Positions 2,650 through 20,795 of a stretch of DNA of 20,795 bases are shown here, one piece after another. A model generated the notes under the pieces. It saw only the letters and a program-made list of their open reading frames with translations. It ran no database searches and was not told the origin of the DNA. This DNA is from a virus (Duplodnaviria; Heunggongvirae; Uroviricota; Caudoviricetes): the IMG/VR virus record IMGVR_UViG_2529292920_000022; one strand, written 5' to 3'. The translations under genes were made by a program, and so were the position numbers. Every line of letters starts with the position of its first letter. Position 1 is the first letter of the stretch.

Positions 2650-3770
2650 AAACCGCCCATTACAGGCGGCTAATTCAGATATTCGCGTATCTGATGTTAC
2701 GCCCCTGACAAAATCCCTTCAAGCACCTGTATGGGTCCACCACATATTGCAATTTTTATTCTCTTTTAAAATATATTCCACGGGCGTCATTAGTGCGAGC
2801 GCCTTGTGGGGTCTTTTGCTGTTATACAGCACCAGATATTCCGCCAGCTTCTGGTTAAATAGCGCCAGATCTTCAAAGAGTAAAATCTCATTAAATTCAA
2901 TAAACTGCTCTCTTAACGTCCGGTTAAAACGTTCACAGATAGCGTTCATTTTTGGCGTGTAGGGATAGGTCCAGAGGTGTTTGATAGCGGCTTCCTGCAG
3001 CGTTTTGTCGAAGTTTCCCAGGAACTCTTTTCCGTTATCTGTGATTATCTGGCTGATACCGACCGGGAACAACCGGGCTGCGCGGCTGAAGAAGTGATTG
3101 ACGATATCACTGTTGAGTGACGGCACAGCCAGCGCCAGCGCGTAATTGCTGCATTCGTCGATCATGGTGATGACATAGCGACGCAGTTCGCCCATTCTGA
3201 GCTCAATGGCGTCCATCCCAATGAGCTCACCTGTCTTTACCGGGCGGTAGTGCTTTGGCCTGCGGGGTTTGGCAGACCGCTTTTTGACAAGCAGTGCCTT
3301 CCCCCGCGATCCCAGACGCACAGGTATCATCCGCATTTTATCATGTGCGGCAGCGATCATTCTGCCGATGGTGGAAACACTCGGACAGGCCAGATAGCGC
3401 TGTTCGCACCAGGGCTTCAGGCGAACAAAAATCTGCTCTTTACCGAGGTTCGGCAGCTCTGTCCTGAGGCGTCGAATCTCTTTCAGCACATCGGGATGCC
3501 AGTGTTTTTTTCGTCGCACCAGAGGTGCCTTACTGTGCGGGATTAGCCCCTCAGGTCCTTCCTTGTTCAGTAACTGACGCCACCAGTAAAGCGTGCGGCA
3601 GGACACGCCAAAGGCTTCAGAAGCTGCAGAAATACCGTGTTTATCCCAGAAGTGCAGAGCCTTCATTCTCATTGTTGCTATATCAGCCATCACTGAAAGC
3701 CTCAACGCATAATCGGCCGTTTGGTAGTACTTAGGATAGCCAACCATCAGATGCTGCATTTGCATAGTGC
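2650..3770 (-). mobile_element. IS481-family-like insertion sequence (single-ORF DDE transposase); boundaries approximate
   Basis: A single minus-strand ORF with an N-terminal HTH and an rve-type DDE core fills the gap between alpA and the next plus-strand gene. Imperfect inverted motifs near both ends (CATCAGAT-containing) are candidate terminal repeats. Exact ends and target-site duplication not resolved. Confidence 0.5.
2719..3765 (-). CDS. DDE transposase (rve / integrase core), IS481-family-like
   Basis: 348-aa ORF. N-terminal HTH (MADIATMRMKALHFWDKHGISAASEAFGVSCRTLYWWRQ) and candidate D, D, E residues (GMDAIEL, ITDNGKEF, NAICERFNRTL). The true start is probably the internal Met near 3690. 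Confidence 0.75.
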   Translation of the reverse strand: MQMQHLMVGYPKYYQTADYALRLSVMADIATMRMKALHFWDKHGISAASEAFGVSCRTLYWWRQLLNKEGPEGLIPHSKAPLVRRKKHWHPDVLKEIRRLRTELPNLGKEQIFVRLKPWCEQRYLACPSVSTIGRMIAAAHDKMRMIPVRLGSRGKALLVKKRSAKPRRPKHYRPVKTGELIGMDAIELRMGELRRYVITMIDECSNYALALAVPSLNSDIVNHFFSRAARLFPVGISQIITDNGKEFLGNFDKTLQEAAIKHLWTYPYTPKMNAICERFNRTLREQFIEFNEILLFEDLALFNQKLAEYLVLYNSKRPHKALALMTPVEYILKENKNCNMWWTHTGA

Positions 3771-3865
3771 AATCTCCCCTTACTTATCCGGAGGCAATTG
3801 CAATATCTCTGTGAACTTACACAGCACCAAAGCGCACACCGAAAAAGCATCGTGCCAGAGTCTAT

Positions 3866-4171
3866 ATGCTGCGTACTGGTATAGAGGGATGGACAGAAAA
3901 TGACATTCTTCGCTACTGCCGTCTGTCTTCTGGTCGTAACTATGCAACAGAGTTAGAACGCCAGCTTGGAATCACTCTGGAGCGTATCGACGAAAAGAAT
4001 CCTGATGGTATCGGAACACACCTTCGCTACCGTTTCTCCTGCCGTGGTGATGTTCTGAAAGTGATCACTCATGTTAACCATCTTGCGAACATAAATGATC
4101 ACAACGGACTTTCTCAGCAGGAAATTGCCGACATTCTGAAACTCTACCCGAACGCGTTTAACGCCGCCTAA
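3866..4171 (+). CDS. Hypothetical protein (101 aa); possibly a remnant of a gene disrupted by the IS
   Basis: Open frame immediately right of the IS with no convincing RBS at the annotated ATG. Confidence 0.35.
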   Translation: MLRTGIEGWTENDILRYCRLSSGRNYATELERQLGITLERIDEKNPDGIGTHLRYRFSCRGDVLKVITHVNHLANINDHNGLSQQEIADILKLYPNAFNAA

Positions 4172-4183
4172 CGGAGACTGAAA

Positions 4184-5017
4184 ATGAACATCGAAAAAAG
4201 CAGATTAATTTCTGAGGCCGCCCCTCATCTGAACGCCTCTCTGGGCACAATTAACGGTAATGAATTTGCCGCAATTGTCCCGGTTATTCCTGGTCATATC
4301 GGTGGGCGTGAAACCAATATTGTTAGCGCAAAAGCGTTACACAAAGCGTTGGGCGTGGGAAAAGACTTCTCTACATGGATCACTGATCGCATCTCTGAAT
4401 ATGACTTCACCATTGGGCACGATTACTCAGTCCATAAAACAATTTCCCCAAATTTGGGGAAAAGCCCGAATGGCGCGGCTTACAGCAAGATAAAGCACTC
4501 TGGCAGACCCGGCAAAGACTATCTGTTAAGTGTCGGAATGGCGAAAGAACTGGCAATGATCGAACGCAATGATCAGGGTCGCGCTATCCGCCGTTATTTC
4601 ATCCAGTGCGAGGAAGAATTACAGCGTACCGTGCCTGAAATCGCCGCCCGCTATCGTCGCCAGCTAAAAGCCCGTATTAGTGCCGCAAACAACTTTAAGC
4701 CAATGTGCGATGCGCTGAATATGGCCCGTGCCGAGATGGGGAAAATGACGCAGCAACACCACTACACAAACGAGAGCAATATGATTTCTCGTATCGTTCT
4801 TGGTGGGCTAACTGCTAAGCAGTGGGCGCGGATAAATGGCTATTCTGGCGAACCTCGCGACCATATGAACGCAGAACAGCTTGAGCACCTCTCATATCTC
4901 GAAAGCACCAATATCACGTTAATTGATATGGGCATGGAATATGAGCAGCGCAAAGGAGAACTCACCCGCCTGTCGCAACGCTGGCTCGCCAAGCGTCTGG
5001 AGGCGCTCAATGTCTAA
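4184..5017 (+). CDS. AntA/AntB-domain antirepressor-like protein
   Basis: 277-aa ORF. The segment KDYLLSVGMAKELAMIERNDQGRAIRRYFIQCEE and the preceding region match the AntA antirepressor domain pattern. Confidence 0.65.
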   Translation: MNIEKSRLISEAAPHLNASLGTINGNEFAAIVPVIPGHIGGRETNIVSAKALHKALGVGKDFSTWITDRISEYDFTIGHDYSVHKTISPNLGKSPNGAAYSKIKHSGRPGKDYLLSVGMAKELAMIERNDQGRAIRRYFIQCEEELQRTVPEIAARYRRQLKARISAANNFKPMCDALNMARAEMGKMTQQHHYTNESNMISRIVLGGLTAKQWARINGYSGEPRDHMNAEQLEHLSYLESTNITLIDMGMEYEQRKGELTRLSQRWLAKRLEALNV

Positions 5018-5189
5018 GCCAACAGGAACACCACAACCACAAAAACGCTACAAAGATGCCCACGGAGCACTCGTTACTGTCGAAAGCGTGTCTCACAACC
5101 GAGTGACGTTTTATCGCGACGGGTATCAATCGCCATGCGTACAACCGCTGGCGCGTTTCATGAAGGAGTTCGCGGAGGTTAACCAATGA
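5010..5189 (+). CDS. Small protein, DUF4222-like
   Basis: 59-aa ORF (MSKPTGTPQPQKRYKDAHGALVTVESVSHNRVTFYRDGYQSPCVQPLARFMKEFAEVNQ). GGAGG RBS 8 nt upstream; start overlaps the end of the upstream gene by 8 nt. Confidence 0.5.
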   Translation: MSKPTGTPQPQKRYKDAHGALVTVESVSHNRVTFYRDGYQSPCVQPLARFMKEFAEVNQ

Positions 5190-5619
5190 TACCCGTCCAG
5201 AAGAAGACATTTTCACTGGCTGGTATGTCGCCAAAATCCAGCAATATGACGGCAAAGTCAGGCATTAATACAGCAGATACAAGCAAAGTTTATCATTTGC
5301 TGGTGGTCGGAACGGATGCCTTAACCATACCAGAAATCTCGGGCGATGATATTAGCATTGAGAAGGTCAGCGGCTGCGCCAGAAAATTTCTGGTCGTAGA
5401 TGATGTCTTCCGCTCGCGTAGTGACTCCACAAAAACCTTCATCCGCGCGCGTGACGTTAACGAAATGAGCGCGATGTACTGTGCATCTGGTGCTTCCAAT
5501 AGCGAGTTTTCGGAGTCCATAAAAAAGAGCTTGCCGTTATGCGGCAACACGGTTTATGGTTATAAGGCACCTCATAAAACGGGTGCCGGGATTGGCGTCC
5601 TGGTAAATCGAATGGCGAC

Positions 5620-5847
5620 ATATGACGCGCCGAGCGTCTTTTTTTATGTCGTAGGTCTGACTCACCCATTTTTTGGGCGTTGGTGTATAATCCAGCGCCT
5701 TTGTCAATCAATGGTGGCTCAGGCAGGGGCTTCTTCGGAAGCGCCGGTATCCATTCGAGCCGGTTACGCCAACCCTGTCTGGGCTACCACCAGCGAAATT
5801 GGCGTTTCCGGTGGTAGCGTTACATGCTATCGAATGGAGGCTGCCAC
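5620..5847 (+). promoter_or_regulatory. Candidate terminator, promoter and structured leader upstream of the icd-like gene
   Basis: Short GC hairpin GACGC-GCCGA-GCGTC followed by a T7-8 run (about 5624-5645); extended -10 TGTATAAT (about 5684-5691); leader with a GCUUC-UUCG-GAAGC tetraloop hairpin and a 9-bp inverted repeat GCTACCACC / GGTGGTAGC; GGAGG RBS before the ATG at 5848. Confidence 0.3.
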
Positions 5848-6042
5848 ATGCTGGCTACTACCCCTACCCAAAAACCGCAATTTATCTGGATTATCGCCGC
5901 AGTTCGCCGCGATTGCCCGACAATTACCGCCAGAATTCATCATATTGCTGCCGAGTCTGAACGCGATGCTCGCCGTTCTCTGGTGCGCGATCACGTCTGC
6001 TTTTTTGCTGGTCGTATCCGCATGGAGGTGGCACATGATTAA
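5848..6042 (+). CDS. Icd-like (cell-division-inhibitor-like) small protein
   Basis: 64-aa ORF MLATTPTQKPQFIWIIAAVRRDCPTITARIHHIAAESERDARRSLVRDHVCFFAGRIRMEVAHD. The FxGR...V...H C-terminal pattern and size match Icd-like proteins of P1/P4-like elements. Good RBS. Confidence 0.55.
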   Translation: MLATTPTQKPQFIWIIAAVRRDCPTITARIHHIAAESERDARRSLVRDHVCFFAGRIRMEVAHD

Positions 6043-6253
6043 AACCTACGATGTGCATATGGATCCCCTCGAACGCACAAGCCAGATCATCACACTGACA
6101 GAAGTGATTAACGACATTCTGGTGAGCAACTCTCCCTCACGAGACGAAAGACTGAAGGCGTTACTCGCGATATTGGATCTCGCCGTTCGTGACGTTCATT
6201 TCCTGCTGGAAGGTGGCGAAATGCCAGTAAAAACGGGGGCAACCAATGAATAA
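6035..6253 (+). CDS. Hypothetical small protein (72 aa)
   Basis: ATG overlaps the icd-like stop (ATGATTAA); GGAGG RBS. It is the real 3' portion of the 355-aa ORF in the track, which I take to be a chimera. Confidence 0.5.
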   Translation: MIKTYDVHMDPLERTSQIITLTEVINDILVSNSPSRDERLKALLAILDLAVRDVHFLLEGGEMPVKTGATNE

Positions 6254-8229: not shown

Positions 8230-10972
8230 TCTTATCCGTCAGGTTATCAGTGCGTCTGAAAACAACTGGCCTCATGTGCTGGGCTGCCTGAACATAAATG
8301 TCCCTGACTCTCCGCGCCGTCATGCTCCCTGCCCTGCATGTGGGGGCAAAGATCGATTCCGGTTCGATGACAACGGGCGCGGTAGCTTCATCTGTAATCA
8401 GTGCGGCGCTGGTGATGGGCTGGATTTAATTAAACGCGTAAATAACTGCGACACAACAGAGGCGGCGCTGCTTGCCGCTGATGTTCTGGGTATTGATTAC
8501 CGGACAACGGAAACACCAGAAGCCACCAGCCAGAAACGGGAACAACTGGAAACCGAGCGCCAGCAACGCGAACAGGAGCGCCTGAAAAGGGCGGAGAAGG
8601 ACGAACAACAAAGACGGGATACGTTTTCCCGTCAGTTTGATGACATGCGCAGAAAGGCTGTAAACGGCAAATCTGATTATCTGGTTGCGAAAGGGGTAGG
8701 TGATTTTACATTCCCCGTGTTGCCCGATGGATCTCTGTTGCTGGCGCTGGTGGATAAATCCGGCGCAGTCACAGCAGCACAGACTATTACCTCACATGGT
8801 GAAAAAAGACTCCTGACAGGTTCAGCAAAGCGGGGGGCATATCACGCCATAAACGCACCAGAAACAACACAGAGCATCTTAATCGCAGAAGGGCTGGCAA
8901 CGGCATTATCTGCCCATTTAATTCGTCCAGAGGCGCTGACAGTGGCGGCGATTGATGCCGGGAACCTGTTATATGTCGCCCAGGTACTGCGGGATAAATT
9001 TCCTTCAGCACAAATCATCATTGCTGCGGATAACGACCACAGCGAAGGAAGACAAAACACGGGGAGAATAGCAGCAGAAAAAGCAGCTTTATCTGTTTCT
9101 GGATGGGTGGCATTACCCCCGACAGGTCACAAAGCAGACTGGAATGATTACCACCAAAAACACGGCATTAAATGCGCCACAGAAGCGTTCAATAAGTCAA
9201 TGTACCAACCACAGGGTAATGGCGTGAAACAGGAGCCACAGACCATTGAGGGAAGCGATTTTAAGGTTATGGATACCGACCCACTGAAACCAAGAATAGA
9301 AAGCCGCGAGGATGGTATTTATTGGGTATCTCCGAGAGCTGACAGCCAGAGTGGAGAAATCATCAATAACGAAAGCTGGTTATGTTCTCCGTTAAGCGTT
9401 ATCGGTACTGGCAGAGACGATAAAGACCAGTATCTCATTCTTCGCTGGCTGTCGTTTGGTTCTGAAACGCCGACAACCGCTGCCATTCCACTGGCTGATA
9501 TTGGTGAACGTGAAGGATGGCGCACACTTAAAGCTGGTGGGGTAAATGTCACGACCAAAAGCAGCCTCAGAGCAATACTGGCAGACTGGCTACAACGCAG
9601 TGGCTCTCGTGAATTGTGGCGTGTTGCTCATGCCACTGGCTGGCAATGCGGAGCGTACATCATGCCTGATGGGGAAATCATCGGAACACCTGAAAATCCT
9701 GTGCTGTTCAGCGGGAGAAGCTCAGCCGCAGCCGGATATACCGTCTCAGGGAGCGCGCAAAGCTGGCGTGATAACGTGGCGCGTCTGGCCTTTGGTAACT
9801 ATTCAATGATGACCGGGATCGGCGCAGCACTGGCAGCACCATTGATTGGGCTGGTGGGCGCTGACGGGTTCGGCATTCATTTCTATGAGCAGTCGAGCGC
9901 AGGTAAGACCACCACGGCAAACGTGGCGAGCAGCTTATACGGCAACCCTGATTTACTGCGGCTGACGTGGTACGGAACCGCGCTGGGGCTGGCAAATGAG
10001 GCCGCCGCCCACAATGACGGACTAATGCCGCTTGATGAAGTTGGTCAGGGCGCTGATCCTGTCAGCGTTTCACAGTCTGCCTATGCGTTATTTAACGGTG
10101 TAGGGAAACTGCAAGGCGCTAAAGATGGTGGAAACCGGGATCTAAAACGCTGGCGTACAGTGGCAATCAGCACCGGAGAAATGGATTTAGAAACATTTAT
10201 CGCTACTTCCGGGCGAAAAACCAAAGCCGGGCAACTGGTGCGACTGCTGAATATTCCGTTGAGTAAAGCAGTACGCTTTCACGATTACCAGAACGGAAAA
10301 CAGCACGCAGACGCACTGAAAGACGCTTACCAGCATCACCATGGCGCAGCCGGGCGTGAGTGGATTAAATGGCTGGCAGACCACCAGCAACAGGCTATTA
10401 AAACTGTTCGTGATTGCGAAAGCAGATGGAGAAGCCTGATCCCACCCGATTATGGTGAGCAGGTTCACCGTGTAGCCGCGCGATTTGCCATTCTGGAGGC
10501 CGCATTGTTGTTAGGCGAGGTTGTAACAGGCTGGGATGCTCAGACATGCCGTGATGCGATACAGCACAGCTATAACGCATGGTTGCGCGAGTTCGGCACA
10601 GGTAACAAAGAGCATCAGCAGATTATTGAACAAACGGAGGCATTTCTTAATGCCTATGGGCTTAGCCGTTTTGCACCATTTCCATACAGCCCGGCAGATT
10701 TGCCCATCAAAGATTTAGCCGGATACCGTCAGCGTGGAGAACATGACGAAAGCCCAATGATTTTCTACACATTCCCGGCCACATTTGAAAAGGAGATCGC
10801 ATGTGGTTTCAACGCAAAACAGTTTGCTGAAGTGTTGAAAAAAGCCGGGATGCTAACCCCACCAAACAGCGGTCGTGGATACCAAAGAAAATCACCACGT
10901 ATTCAGGGACGACAAATAAACGTTTATGTACTCAATTACCAGCCAGGAGATTATAACTCATCTGAAGAATGA
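8213..10972 (+). CDS. Primase-helicase (P4 alpha-like: zinc-binding primase region, TOPRIM, C-terminal helicase domain)
   Basis: 919-aa ORF. N-terminal Cys cluster (CPACGGKDRF...CNQCG); TOPRIM-like acidic motifs (IAEGLATALS..., IIIAADNDHSEGRQNTG); Walker A-like GIHFYEQSSAGKTT and Walker B-like LMPLDEVG. The ATG at 8216 is the likely start (8213 is GTG). Confidence 0.9.
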   Translation: MMRNIDLIRQVISASENNWPHVLGCLNINVPDSPRRHAPCPACGGKDRFRFDDNGRGSFICNQCGAGDGLDLIKRVNNCDTTEAALLAADVLGIDYRTTETPEATSQKREQLETERQQREQERLKRAEKDEQQRRDTFSRQFDDMRRKAVNGKSDYLVAKGVGDFTFPVLPDGSLLLALVDKSGAVTAAQTITSHGEKRLLTGSAKRGAYHAINAPETTQSILIAEGLATALSAHLIRPEALTVAAIDAGNLLYVAQVLRDKFPSAQIIIAADNDHSEGRQNTGRIAAEKAALSVSGWVALPPTGHKADWNDYHQKHGIKCATEAFNKSMYQPQGNGVKQEPQTIEGSDFKVMDTDPLKPRIESREDGIYWVSPRADSQSGEIINNESWLCSPLSVIGTGRDDKDQYLILRWLSFGSETPTTAAIPLADIGEREGWRTLKAGGVNVTTKSSLRAILADWLQRSGSRELWRVAHATGWQCGAYIMPDGEIIGTPENPVLFSGRSSAAAGYTVSGSAQSWRDNVARLAFGNYSMMTGIGAALAAPLIGLVGADGFGIHFYEQSSAGKTTTANVASSLYGNPDLLRLTWYGTALGLANEAAAHNDGLMPLDEVGQGADPVSVSQSAYALFNGVGKLQGAKDGGNRDLKRWRTVAISTGEMDLETFIATSGRKTKAGQLVRLLNIPLSKAVRFHDYQNGKQHADALKDAYQHHHGAAGREWIKWLADHQQQAIKTVRDCESRWRSLIPPDYGEQVHRVAARFAILEAALLLGEVVTGWDAQTCRDAIQHSYNAWLREFGTGNKEHQQIIEQTEAFLNAYGLSRFAPFPYSPADLPIKDLAGYRQRGEHDESPMIFYTFPATFEKEIACGFNAKQFAEVLKKAGMLTPPNSGRGYQRKSPRIQGRQINVYVLNYQPGDYNSSEE

Positions 10973-10997
10973 GCTTCTTCATGTGCGTAGAAAAGGT

Positions 10998-11108
10998 GTT
11001 GGTTCAGTTGGTTCAGTTGGTTCAATTTGTAAAGAGTATTGTTTTATAAGGATTTTATTCTTTTTATTGAACCAACACTGAACCAACAACACGGTATTTT
11101 GAACCAAC
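10998..11108. repeat. Iteron array, putative replication origin (left copy of an inverted pair)
   Basis: Three tandem GTTGGTTCA 9-mers (about 10998-11024), a 44-bp AT-rich spacer, then three TGAACCAAC 9-mers (the reverse complement) at about 11069, 11079 and 11100. Lies immediately 3' of the primase gene. Confidence 0.6.
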
Positions 11109-11428
11109 ACAATGTGACTGAATTGATGCGCACAACACCTGGCTGGCATCAGAGAGTGTTTTACGAGACTTTCGTAAAATCCTGTGTACAAGGGCGTGAC
11201 GTTTTTGAAAGTGAGCACTACGAAATTTTCGTAGTTCAAAAAACAGCCTCTGAGAAGTTGTTATGCCTGTTCAGCAAACCATCCGCATAGCTGATCGCGA
11301 ATCAAATTACCAATGGAGCCAGAAGCAAGGGCAGAACTGAAAAGCGCCTGCCGTGAAGAGTAATGCGATACCATAAATATAGTTTTTAGAGTCCATAAAA
11401 AACCTGTCAAAACCTGACACACAGAACG

Positions 11429-11462
11429 ATGCCACCAGCTACTGAGCGGTGGCATTTTTTTG
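11429..11462 (+). terminator. Rho-independent terminator
   Basis: 8-bp stem ATGCCACC / GGTGGCAT with an 11-nt loop, followed by 8 or more T. Confidence 0.6.
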
Positions 11463-11556
11463 TGCTATTTGTTTCATATTTTGCAATTACGATGATGAAT
11501 ATTGCGATTTGTGAAACCATAATAACTGTTGTTTTATACAGTTCTAAGGGGGCGTT

Positions 11557-11718
11557 ATGGCTATTTCAGTAAAGCCGGTATTGATAAGTGAGAAGCAAAT
11601 GGAAGCGATAAAGAAAATTCAGGAAGAGCAGCGTAAAAAATCAGGAATTGGAGTAGCGCCAACTCTGCATGAAATTGCACGAGGGTTAATAGATAAGGCG
11701 CTGGCAGGCTGTATGTGA
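11557..11718 (+). CDS. Small hypothetical protein (53 aa), possible regulator
   Basis: ORF MAISVKPVLISEKQMEAIKKIQEEQRKKSGIGVAPTLHEIARGLIDKALAGCM with AAGGGGG RBS. Below the ORF-track length cutoff. First gene after the terminator and promoter-like AT-rich region. Confidence 0.4.
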   Translation: MAISVKPVLISEKQMEAIKKIQEEQRKKSGIGVAPTLHEIARGLIDKALAGCM

Positions 11719-11734
11719 AAATGGATGGCATCGC

Positions 11735-12196
11735 ATGGAACTAAAATTTATTGATAACCCTGTGCGATTACAGGCCTTTCTTAACGAGCCAGGCAATACC
11801 GAAAATATTGTTGAGCCGGGGCACACGTACTACATCAAGCCTGATGCGGTATATCTCGGCATCTACGAAGGATTAGTGCTGGCTGGCGTTCATGAAGTGC
11901 GTAACTTCTGGCATAGCGTTGTTGAATGCCATGCGGTGTACGACCCCGGATTCCGTGGTGAATATGCACTGCAAGGGCATCGATTATTCTGCAAATGGCT
12001 TCTCGAAAACTCACCATTCCTTAACAGCATCACCATGGTTCCTGACACCACCAAATACGGACGGGCAATTATCCGTTTGCTTGGCGCTACCCGTGTTGGT
12101 CACCTTGATGATGCTTATATCAGATGTGGTAAACCCGTCGGCGTAACGCTTTATCAGTTAACTCGGCAACAATATAAGGAATTCAGCGAATGTTAA
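11735..12196 (+). CDS. Phage virion-assembly-associated protein, P22 gp14-like by position (tentative)
   Basis: 153-aa ORF translationally coupled (ATGTTAA overlap) to the following three genes. Assigned by position in a gp14-gp7-gp20-gp16-like array; the sequence itself is not diagnostic to me. Confidence 0.4.
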   Translation: MELKFIDNPVRLQAFLNEPGNTENIVEPGHTYYIKPDAVYLGIYEGLVLAGVHEVRNFWHSVVECHAVYDPGFRGEYALQGHRLFCKWLLENSPFLNSITMVPDTTKYGRAIIRLLGATRVGHLDDAYIRCGKPVGVTLYQLTRQQYKEFSEC

Positions 12197-12867
12197 TTAC
12201 CCATATAGCTCATAAACATCTCAATCGTGCCGTATACGAAAAAGGCGGTGATGGTGGTGCCTCTAAAGCTCAGGCGAAGGCCCAGCAGCAGGCAATTGAT
12301 TTGCAGCGCGAGCAGTGGAATACGGTGATGAATAATCTCAAGCCGTATGCAGAAGTCGGATTGCCTGCTTTACAACAACTGCAAGGACTGATGACTCTGG
12401 AAGGGCAGAATAAAGCCGCGAATGATTTCTTTGGTTCTGGTTTATATAAAACACAGGCAGATCAGGCCCGTTATCAGAACCTTGTCTCAGCAGAAGCTAC
12501 CGGGGGGCTTGGCTCAACAGCTACCAGTAACCAGTTATCTTCCATTGCGCCCATGCTTTATAACAATTGGCTCAGTGGGCAAATGCAAAATTATGGAAAC
12601 CTGCTAAATGTCGGGATGAATGCGGCATCAGGGCAGGCAACGGCAGGGCAAAACTACGCCAATAATACCGGACAACTCTTGCAGGGGCTTGGCGCTATTC
12701 GTGCAGGTCAGGCGCAGCAGCCATCCAGTCTTGCGCGTGGTATTGGTGGGGCAGCATCAGGCGCTTTAGCGGGTGCGCAACTTGGTTCCGTTGTTCCTGG
12801 AATAGGAACTGCGGCCGGCGCTATTGGTGGTGGGCTTATTGGTCTTGTTGGGGGGCTTGGATTCTAA
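12190..12867 (+). CDS. Ejection (internal virion) protein, P22 gp7-like
   Basis: 225 aa (P22 gp7 is about 229 aa as I recall). Gln/Ala/Gly-rich with a Gly-rich hydrophobic C-terminus (GIGTAAGAIGGGLIGLVGGLGF). TAATG coupling to the next gene. Confidence 0.55.
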   Translation: MLITHIAHKHLNRAVYEKGGDGGASKAQAKAQQQAIDLQREQWNTVMNNLKPYAEVGLPALQQLQGLMTLEGQNKAANDFFGSGLYKTQADQARYQNLVSAEATGGLGSTATSNQLSSIAPMLYNNWLSGQMQNYGNLLNVGMNAASGQATAGQNYANNTGQLLQGLGAIRAGQAQQPSSLARGIGGAASGALAGAQLGSVVPGIGTAAGAIGGGLIGLVGGLGF

Positions 12868-14288
12868 TGGCGACATGGCAACTTGGCGGGCTGCCTAGCA
12901 TGGCACCGCAAAATGATAATGCTCCTCGTTCTTCCGTTCCTCAGCCTGTGCAGTATCAGCAGCAGCCAAACGTAGGTTTAATGGCGCTACAGGGGCTAAG
13001 AGGCGTTGCTGAGATTAATCAGCAGGCACGTCAACAACAGCGTAAATCAGAGTTTCAGAAAGCATATGCCGGGGCTTTTGAGTCTGGAGACAGAAACAAA
13101 ATGCGCAGTCTTATTTCTGAGTATCCAGAAGAATTTGAAAGCGTTCAGAAAGGGATGGGCTTTATTGATGACGACCAGAGAAATTCTATTGGTCATCTTG
13201 CGACTAGTGCTCAAATCGCATCTTCGCTCGGAACTGGGGCATTTGGAAAATTCATAGCAGATAACGAAGATGAAATGCGTCGCTTGGGAATTTCTCCTGA
13301 GTCTGTTGCCGAAATGCATGTTAATGATCCACAGGGATTCCAGCGGCTTGCTGGTAGTATGGCACTGTTTTCTCTCGGTCATGAGAAGTATTTCGATATC
13401 AAAGATCAAATGGAAGGTCGGGATATTGAGCGAGGCAGGCTGGCAGAGACAATCCGCAGCAATCAGGCTGGCGAAGCACTTCAGGCGAGAGGGCAGGATA
13501 TTAGCCGAGCAAATGCGTTAACGTCAGCATATGCACCAACAGCAGCAATGCAGAATTACAATCAGTACGCTCAAATGTTAAAGGCGGATCCAGAGGGGGC
13601 GGCGGCATTTGCGGCAGCGGCTGGAATTAATACAAACGCCAAAAAATTAATGAGTGTTAGAGAAAACGATGATGGCACTGTCACAAAATACTACACAGAC
13701 GGAAGTGAAGAGCAGGGAAAACTAAACCAGCCAATATCTGGAGATGGGTTTCGTCCAATAGCTTTGCCAACAGCCCAAAAGATCATGGAAAAGTCGCCAG
13801 AAGGGGCTAAAAAAGCTGCTGGATTTGCATACAGGGTTAGGGATGCTCTTGATTCAATAGATACACTGAAAGACCAGCTTAGCCCACAGCGAGTGGCGAT
13901 CATTAATAATGCTTTGGGTAATGGGACGCTGGCTAACTTAACGCTCAGCCCAACAGAGCAGCAATACGTTGTTAATGCTAATGACGCAATAATGGCAATA
14001 CTCCGTCAGGAAACAGGGGCAGCTATCGTACCTGCTGAAATGTCAAAATATTATCAAATGTATTTCCCTCAGCCTGGCGACTCCACAAAAACCATTGATA
14101 CCAAGCGCCGGAAGATGGAAAACCAGTTCAATTCGCTGAAAGCTGCTTCTGGTCGAGCTTATGATGCTTTGCGGGTTATTTCAGCAGTTGACAGAGGAAC
14201 GTCTTCTTCGTCGCAGACATTGCCGCAATCTGAGCAGGTATCACAGCCAGCAGCCAGCAGTAACTTTTCTTCACTATGGGGTGATTAA
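12867..14288 (+). CDS. Ejection protein, P22 gp20-like
   Basis: 473 aa (P22 gp20 is about 471 aa as I recall). Low-complexity Q/A-rich N-terminus. TAATG coupling on both sides. Confidence 0.55.
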   Translation: MATWQLGGLPSMAPQNDNAPRSSVPQPVQYQQQPNVGLMALQGLRGVAEINQQARQQQRKSEFQKAYAGAFESGDRNKMRSLISEYPEEFESVQKGMGFIDDDQRNSIGHLATSAQIASSLGTGAFGKFIADNEDEMRRLGISPESVAEMHVNDPQGFQRLAGSMALFSLGHEKYFDIKDQMEGRDIERGRLAETIRSNQAGEALQARGQDISRANALTSAYAPTAAMQNYNQYAQMLKADPEGAAAFAAAAGINTNAKKLMSVRENDDGTVTKYYTDGSEEQGKLNQPISGDGFRPIALPTAQKIMEKSPEGAKKAAGFAYRVRDALDSIDTLKDQLSPQRVAIINNALGNGTLANLTLSPTEQQYVVNANDAIMAILRQETGAAIVPAEMSKYYQMYFPQPGDSTKTIDTKRRKMENQFNSLKAASGRAYDALRVISAVDRGTSSSSQTLPQSEQVSQPAASSNFSSLWGD

Positions 14289-16393: not shown

Positions 16394-16397
16394 CTGG

Positions 16398-16421
16398 TTA
16401 GCCATGGATGGCTAATTTTTG
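16398..16421 (+). terminator. Candidate terminator between convergent genes
   Basis: Inverted repeat TTAGCCAT / ATGGCTAA followed by TTTTT, immediately after the gp16-like stop. Confidence 0.35.
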
Positions 16422-20475: not shown

Positions 20476-20795
20476 TGCTCTCTCTGTTTTGGCAAATTAC
20501 CCCTCACTTTGAAGGGATCGGAGCTATAAAAATGGTGTTATCCGGAATCCTCAAATTGAGGATTGTGGAAGAATCAATGGGTTAGGTCATCGTGCAAATT
20601 TGCACTCTGCCAGCCAACGCAATTTCTCGTTGGCGGAAATATCAGGTATTTACTGAACGAACGGTCTACCAGTCTGTTCAGTTACCAGTTGCACATGGCT
20701 GTTTCATGTGAGAACGGAGGTTTTTTTCGGACATCGCTATTGGGTACAGCAATTTCACGAGCAATACGCGCGCGCAGGACAACAAGCCTGAACAT

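Follow-up and report, generated by a model that had tools for sequence, protein, structure and literature searches.

The closest described relative of the DNA considered here is EcCIMP1, a phage-inducible chromosomal island (PICI) of Escherichia coli MP1 that is mobilised by the P22-like phage Kapi1 and in which AlpA is the master regulator (Pick et al. 2025, PMC11773190). The stretch in question, IMG/VR virus record IMGVR_UViG_2529292920_000022 (20,795 nucleotides; the whole of it was analysed and is referred to as the window), is an EcCIMP1-like PICI at tRNA-Thr when compared with the published description of EcCIMP1: both occupy the tRNA-Thr site flanked by proA and yagU, both measure about 20 kb, and both carry int, AlpA, an antirepressor, Ash, a primase, DNA-transfer genes and PerC (PMC11773190). 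In the window the integrase lies beside tRNA-Thr (proA/yagU), AlpA, PerC and a primase with an origin are present, and capsid and lysis genes are absent from the roughly 20 kb. It is 99.7% identical to an annotated E. coli island lying between proA/tRNA-Thr and yagU, whose genes comprise an integrase, an AlpA-type regulator, an AntA/B antirepressor, Ash, a TOPRIM/DUF927 primase, DUF2824 and P22-type ejection genes, and PerC. Helper-dependent excision and transfer have been demonstrated for EcCIMP1 itself (PMC11773190); the window copy is known from its sequence. The intergenic region between origin and ejection operon, its terminator and the gene remnant described below are not mentioned in the identification section of the EcCIMP1 paper, nor did they surface in a term search of its main text (PMC11773190). 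Two short dyad-symmetric sites in that region, at 11159-11179 and 11218-11234, are the subject of this study. They are most probably hairpin scars inherited from an ant gene, lying in a dead fragment within the tail of the early operon of an EcCIMP1-like island, which would be ended by a terminator before a separate ejection operon begins.

Antirepressors decide prophage induction, and in the immI region of P22 the ribbon-helix-helix repressors Arc and Mnt bind dyad-symmetric operators at Pant/Pmnt. The window resembles immI in that its short dyad sites adjoin a small, possibly ribbon-helix-helix-like open reading frame (ORF); it differs in that its dyads are overlapped by no promoter, derive from coding sequence and are not conserved together with the candidate regulator, and we know of no sequence resemblance between them and the Arc or Mnt operators. 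Cis-acting stem-loops within viral coding sequence form another class of such sites and are recognised by excess synonymous constraint and covariation. The hairpin of Ant-family genes from which the dyads appear to descend is like these in its fixed position, in the invariance of its synonymous sites and in its compensatory changes, including coupled changes of amino acids, but unlike them it sits in a regulatory gene of DNA phages.

The dyads and the Ant-family gene remnant

Dyad 1, TTTTACGA-GACTT-TCGTAAAA (11159-11179, + strand), has 8-bp arms around a 5-nt spacer and a predicted RNA hairpin with dG -8.3 and z = -3.2; dyad 2, CTACGAAA-T-TTTCGTAG (11218-11234, + strand), extends to 9-bp arms around a 1-nt centre at 11217-11235 (dG -8.6, z = -3.9). 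The sequence-only reading of this DNA had picked out both sites, placing dyad 1 a single base too far to the left, and had noted that they share a TACGA/TCGTA core. That core, TACGA-N5-TCGTA, is present in exactly two copies in the 20.8-kb window (11162-11176 and 11219-11233), which lie 57 bp apart from start to start and are identical at 13/15 positions; this is far above chance, shuffles giving an expectation of 0.03 and 0/100 of them containing two matches. Both dyads also count among the perfect hairpins (at least 8 bp, loop of at most 5 nt) of the window, of which there are 10 at distinct positions where 1.6 would be expected; elsewhere in the island the dyad motif does not recur. The setting from which the earlier interpretation started holds as well, with iterons at 10998-11110 on one side and, on the other, an ORF of 53 amino acids (aa) and the DUF2824 and ejection genes from 11557 onwards. 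A single long hairpin spanning 11149-11253, in which outer arms matching at 12/14 positions would enclose dyad 1 paired to dyad 2, was considered and rejected: it is marginal against shuffles (z = -2.1), and its outer arm is missing from islands of the DUF5906 type.

The stretch 11155-11306 (+ strand) is, on homology, a degenerate remnant of an Ant-family antirepressor gene of the type represented by the N-terminal domain of P1 Ant1/2 (PHROG 1726), and it contains both dyads. It is made up of two pieces. Fragment 2 (11205-11306, + strand) corresponds to nt 155-267 of the intact phage genes for 242-aa proteins, and nucleotide alignment with intact genes of 232-242 aa reveals a 9-nt deletion and, near 11253, a 1-nt deletion by which the frame is shifted. 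Fragment 1 (about 11155-11204, + strand) is a more diverged, P1-like copy of that segment and meets fragment 2 at a shared TTGAA. With tblastn the remnant matches the 232-242-aa phage proteins in two frames, covering residues 49-74 and 64-88; with blastn the phiKp_30 gene is matched at E = 8e-13 and the ZX1 gene at E = 2e-6. The intact homolog in turn matches PHROG 1726, "anti-repressor", at E = 1e-100, and its N-terminal domain is 59% identical to that of P1 ant (Ant1/Ant2). This Ant-type N-terminal domain is present in 239 phage records from many hosts, many family members carry a C-terminal KilAC/ANT domain (PF03374), and in P22-like E. coli prophages the intact homolog lies in the immI region, beside arc and ant.

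Compared with P1 immI ant1/ant2 and the Ant N-terminal family, 11205-11306 is thus homologous to the region coding for the N-terminal domain, and both dyads fall at the hairpin position of the family and in its reading frame: dyad 1 reads (V)FYETFVK and dyad 2 EHYEIFVV, 19 codons apart in one frame of the remnant. Unlike P1 ant, the remnant retains only about 50 codons, with a segment duplicated and the frame shifted; it lacks a start, the first 50 or so codons and the whole C-terminal half, and cannot make an antirepressor. An intact gene would join the N-terminal domain to a C-terminal effector domain; because only about residues 49-88 are left, with the 9-nt deletion, the frameshift and a stop codon at 11288-11290, the remnant is a pseudogene fragment, not a gene. 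Between the window and the remnant of island L004, 1 synonymous and 5 nonsynonymous differences were read from the alignment. No intact protein carrying the fused peptide FYETFVKSCVQGRDVFESEHYEIFVV was found among 5.8 billion proteins, the matches being short E. coli ORF calls at the same locus, and a tblastn search of the phage collection with this peptide matched the fragment-2 part alone. Other coding interpretations were set aside: an 83-aa ORF on the + strand (11039-11290) starts inside the iterons, shows 1 synonymous and 5 nonsynonymous changes between island types and has homologs only at this locus, while minus-strand ORFs at 10979-11239 and 11261-11455 were weighed as real genes and dismissed.

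Dyad 2 is nucleotide-identical to the conserved hairpin-coding DNA of intact type-A Ant-family genes and is, by this direct homology, an inherited copy of the selected stem-loop of the ant gene in its type-A (P22-like prophage) allele. Dyad 1 is probably a second, P1-like copy of the hairpin, joined to the type-A copy at the shared TTGAA. Its flanks, TTTTAC...AAAATCC followed by ACAAGGGC, resemble the P1 hairpin allele, and when the dyad-1 segment is aligned locally with P1 ant, the top-scoring match coincides exactly with the P1 hairpin, although its score (36 against 25.7 +/- 3.6 in shuffles) is borderline.

A covarying hairpin in intact Ant-family genes

The hairpin was followed through the intact genes of phage loci L015-L104 and L115-L255, which include, for example, P1 (L095, about 1626-1650) and Pseudomonas phage Alize (L102). 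At a fixed codon position, 126 of the 140 unique ORFs carry a perfect hairpin of at least 8 bp, against 13 such hairpins elsewhere in 111.6 kb; the site follows a DEL(E/D)G motif in the Ant N-terminal domain and is occupied by at least 8 different stem sequences. Among 32 distinct 29-mers at the site, which were centred on the palindrome (the centre lying 28-34 nt past the conserved DEL codons in nearly all), 89.9% of cells pair, as compared with 63.5 +/- 1.8% in shuffles, none of which reaches the observed value (0/500). All of the stem pairs (9/9) covary, with both sides changing, and controls slid along the sequence are 25-45% paired.

The constraint is also visible in single subfamilies. 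Across 21 unique type-A sequences, GAGCACTACGAAATTTTCGTAGTTCAAAAA is invariant and codons 55-64 are the one place in the gene where 6 or more successive codons are fully invariant. Where the palindrome GCACTACAC-AAAAA-GTGTAGTGC (EHYTKSVVQ) is replaced by GACCTACAC-AAAAA-GTGTAGGTC (ETYTKSVG), two compensatory pair swaps have occurred, and H to T and V to G have changed together. In the YE[I/S/T/N]FV subfamily the loop centre alone varies, and in the YKSFV subfamily a G:C pair has become A:U. Further palindromes occur at the same codons, in NCKTFAV, in TGKKFRL (AACCGGAA...TTCCGGTT) and in the Pseudomonas version GVCKKIAHP (GGGGTATGCAA...TTGCACACCCC); the hairpin of P1 itself encodes EFYTKSAKS (TTTTACAC...GTGCAAAA). 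The phages that bear the hairpin infect Escherichia, Klebsiella, Salmonella, Shewanella, Acinetobacter, Pseudomonas and the aphid symbiont Hamiltonella.

To judge from this covariation, intact ant genes are under clear selection for the hairpin. No description of a hairpin inside ant genes was found in Rfam or in the literature searched, and the covarying intragenic hairpin seen in these alignments is, as far as searched, a new observation. The stem-loop is upheld by compensatory changes, some of which alter amino acids, and deserves a direct test; an unrecognised cis-element inside antirepressor genes would, if true, add a new and directly testable layer of control. In the phiKp_30 genome the type-A palindrome occurs only once, and no operator network is seen there. 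A more speculative proposal, to which little credence is given, takes the ant palindrome as a cis-element through which a trans-acting factor, protein or RNA, controls how the antirepressor is expressed; the two tandem copies that the island has kept, downstream of its origin and within its early transcript, would then act as a decoy or sensor, tying either the early transcript or the lysis-lysogeny control of the helper to that factor.

The cargo slot, the terminator and the competing readings

The sister E. coli islands match the window at 10973-11166 and again at 11307/11327-11560, with an unrelated cassette between these matches. In the window the cassette (11167-11306) is the ant remnant; in L006 and L008 it holds a 152-aa ORF (L008 4038-4465), in L007 a 93-aa ORF (3436-4000) and in L004, which has a different primase, 78-aa and 245-aa ORFs (4833-5803). 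Searches of the cassette ORFs against PADLOC, Pfam and PHROG gave no matches, and the idea that they are defence genes was dropped. The stretch from origin to terminator is, on these alignments, a variable and recombination-prone cargo slot. Islands of the L008 type share the window sequence up to 11166; islands with a DUF5906 primase share it only from about 11152-11158 onward, and in them dyad 1 is mutated from TCGTA to TTGTA. Since the one type of sharing ends at 11166 and the other starts at about 11152, dyad 1 lies on two mosaic breakpoints.

Downstream of the slot, an intrinsic terminator occupies 11428-11461 (+ strand), with its stem at 11428-11456 and a T7 tract at 11455-11461. It folds into 12 pairs with one bulged A, a TGCCACC/GGTGGCA core and an ACUG loop (dG -17.9 kcal/mol, z = -4.4; 0/200 shuffles fold equally well). 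The sequence-only reading had described an 8-bp GC stem followed by T8 and had ranked it among the strongest terminators of the window; its strength stands, the + strand of the window having four clear terminators in all (the others at 2337-2360, 5624-5638 and 16396-16417), while the stem is to be corrected to 12 pairs with a bulge and the tract to T7. The terminator is retained in all E. coli variants, with the bulge altered and the stem intact in L007. In Leclercia (L011, L012) folding finds a GC hairpin and U-tract with different stems just upstream of the conserved promoter block, and in Pantoea (L014) the GC-rich dyad GCCCTGCGAACGCGGGGC followed by a T-run can be read from the alignment at that position, the segment that was folded lacking the 5' arm. 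It is, from these comparisons, a positionally conserved element that parts two co-oriented transcription units across genera with differing stems. As the gene order and the absence of an earlier + strand terminator past the primase gene suggest, it would end the alpA-to-primase (early/replication) unit.

Between slot and terminator lies an island-specific untranslated block (11307-11427, + strand) that is kept whatever cassette precedes it. Its part 11373-11427, almost invariant in E. coli, holds AGTTTTTAGAGTCCATAAAAAA (11381-11402) and, just before the terminator, two tandem 10-mers (11399-11418), AAAACCTGTC and AAAACCTGAC. The block appears to be conserved as nucleic acid because its reading frame differs among island variants. 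In island L258 the tandem pair is also present, as AAAACCGGTC and AAAACTTGTC.

The organisation proposed for this locus is accordingly simple. The slot between the origin and the terminator of the early (alpA to primase) operon holds a dead Ant-family remnant here, as in most E. coli relatives; early-operon transcription would cross origin and remnant and stop at 11428-11461; about 60 nt past the terminator, the operon of the 53-aa ORF and the ejection genes would start from its own promoter, in which a palindrome with 17-nt arms takes the place of the -35 box and which is probably regulator-dependent, through AlpA or the 53-aa protein. The dyads would be passive and would not serve the island as operators. 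Seen from the island, the region is an ordinary operon end with the scrap of a gene, in an island family already known; this reading removes the dyads-as-switch lead and moves attention to the terminator (11428-11461) and to the palindrome and -10 box at 11471-11523.

Several observations weigh against treating the dyads as passive scars of two ant-gene copies, or leave parts of that account less secure. The P1-like origin of dyad 1 depends on the borderline alignment given above, and the 12/14 complementarity between 11149-11162 and 11240-11253 has suggested a weaker alternative, in which dyad 1 would be an inverted partial copy of a dyad-2 arm. That the terminator ends the early operon, and where the downstream promoter lies, is deduced from sequence. 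Stem mismatches of the two kinds that could tell an RNA from a DNA element are similar in number in the intact genes (G.U = 5, A.C = 7). About 455 of the roughly 520-590 E. coli genomes with such islands retain the remnant at 95-100% identity, and it occurs together with two different replication modules; in the window both stems remain perfect although the surrounding frame is destroyed, and the sole two dyad variants seen are C to T changes, each of which keeps a G.U pair. The remnant or its dyads may thus have kept some function in the island. If co-opted, the stem-loops would act in the 3' tail of the early transcript, stabilising it, directing its processing, or binding or titrating a factor of the ant hairpin; such a role would draw on the same prevalence, intact stems and G.U pairs, on the clear selection for the hairpin in intact genes and on the orientation of the copies, which is that of early-operon transcription. 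It is nevertheless judged unlikely: islands L006, L007 and L008 do without the dyads and show no visible loss of their flanking modules, the relatives in other genera lack the dyads too, and the helper Kapi1 has neither an Ant-N gene nor the palindrome or hairpin. Moreover, population variation is too low for constraint to show, and hairpin identity need not mean selection in the island because intact genes also share high identity there.

Less probable still is that the two dyads together serve as DNA operators at which a dimeric regulator of island or helper (AlpA, the 53-aa protein or a PerC-like protein) controls a local promoter or read-through, as had been suggested when they were first noticed. 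The shared TACGA-N5-TCGTA geometry with its 57-bp spacing, the adjoining small ORF with its possible ribbon-helix-helix fold, and a palindrome covariation compatible with binding by a protein of co-evolving specificity count in favour of this reading, and the dyads are indeed related dyad-symmetric sites. They are, however, not near a promoter and not conserved with a regulator and its target. A sigma-70 scan of 10800-11900 on both strands gave no promoter-like site near them, the nearest candidate -10 (11518-11523) being about 290 bp off, and the island contains no further sites. The dyads are absent from the sister E. coli islands L006, L007 and L008, which keep origin, terminator, promoter and 53-aa ORF, and from the relatives in Leclercia, Pectobacterium and Pantoea to which the 53-aa ORF led; L006, L007, L008, L011, L012, L013 and L014 all lack them yet keep the 53-aa ORF and the promoter block. 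It was this lack of conservation in related elements that the original proposal had named as evidence against itself. In addition, dyad 1 is asymmetric in one island type, both dyads stem from the coding sequence of a foreign gene, and the conserved element beside the operon is a different palindrome (11471-11517). The same proposal had raised a short regulated transcript, and here the conservation of 11373-11461 counts in its favour: this is the best-conserved intergenic part among E. coli variants whatever the upstream cassette, its variable frame points to conservation as nucleic acid, and its core motif is met again in Leclercia and in a further type of island. A 3'-UTR-derived or independent small RNA of about 11373-11461, consisting of an AU-rich single strand, a small hairpin and the terminator, remains doubtful all the same. 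Its fold score (z = -4.5) is owed largely to the terminator; no promoter-like site and no Rfam match (at E = 10) accompany it; L258 keeps neither the small internal hairpin nor the terminator arm; the motif also lies at 5504-5526, where no nearby + strand terminator precedes isrK; and pairing with the operon leader or with the island small RNAs (isrK, C4, int-alpA) is not significant.

The ejection-operon promoter and neighbouring features

The palindrome next to the terminator, GTTTCATATTTTGCAAT-N13-ATTGCGATTTGTGAAAC (11471-11517, + strand), was found by repeat search and has 17-nt arms and a 13-nt spacer. A -10-like CATAAT (11518-11523, + strand; TATAAT in relatives) abuts it, and the 53-aa ORF begins about 33 nt further on. 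In the alignment, 11471-11523 contains the sole strongly conserved non-coding columns across five genera (Escherichia and the Leclercia, Pectobacterium and Pantoea relatives among them), and it is the likely candidate promoter/operator of the 53-aa ORF and the ejection operon; because it has no good -35 box, this promoter is expected to be regulator-dependent. The 53-aa ORF (11557-11718, + strand) is the first of the ejection operon and occurs in all relatives from the five genera, with 19 invariant residues. A single-sequence AF2 model of its product shows an extended N-terminus and two helices (pLDDT 77.6), so that a small DNA-binding protein compatible with a ribbon-helix-helix fold is possible. 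To call it a proven ribbon-helix-helix protein was rejected: the topology fits, but searches of Pfam, PHROG, PDB sequences and Foldseek gave no match.

Upstream, the primase stop codon ends at 10972 (+ strand), and directly 3' of it the origin iterons (10998-11110), found by repeat search and sequence reading, consist of three GTTGGTTCA(G/A)T repeats, an AT-rich spacer and three inverted TGAACCAACA repeats. The Rfam matches in the window are C4, isrK and int-alpA alone, none of them within the dyad-terminator region; 10900-11800 gives no relevant match even at E = 10, and Rfam scans of the related loci found nothing in this region.

The 22-23-nt motif (G)AGTTTTyrGAGTCCATAAAAAA, which is present upstream of the terminator (11381-11402), occurs a second time in the window at 5504-5526, about 40 nt upstream of isrK. 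It is found twice in Leclercia island L011 (at 2799 and 2834) and at 3509 in L258, an unrelated PerC/ProQ island in which its flanks join both window contexts; a 21/24 match lies in the P22-like small-terminase gene of phiKp_30 (L256, 22884-22897), within the codons KFSESIKKG. It may serve as a linker in recombination or as a binding site, or be the scrap of a gene.

The RefSeq "Ash family protein" ORF (355 aa, 5186-6253) spans the isrK (5567-5644) and C4 (5707-5794) RNA genes, and the coding annotation of its 5' part is probably wrong. Near the right end of the island, 60 nt (20527-20586) are 85% identical to the interior of the Kapi1 anti-repressor gene Kapi1_032 (13227-13286) and are possibly another antirepressor scrap. 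At 11735-12324, which takes in the DUF2824 gene and the beginning of the ejection gene that follows, the window is 81.5% identical in DNA to positions 27948-28536 of the helper Kapi1; on this identity, the island has close copies of virion/ejection genes of its helper.

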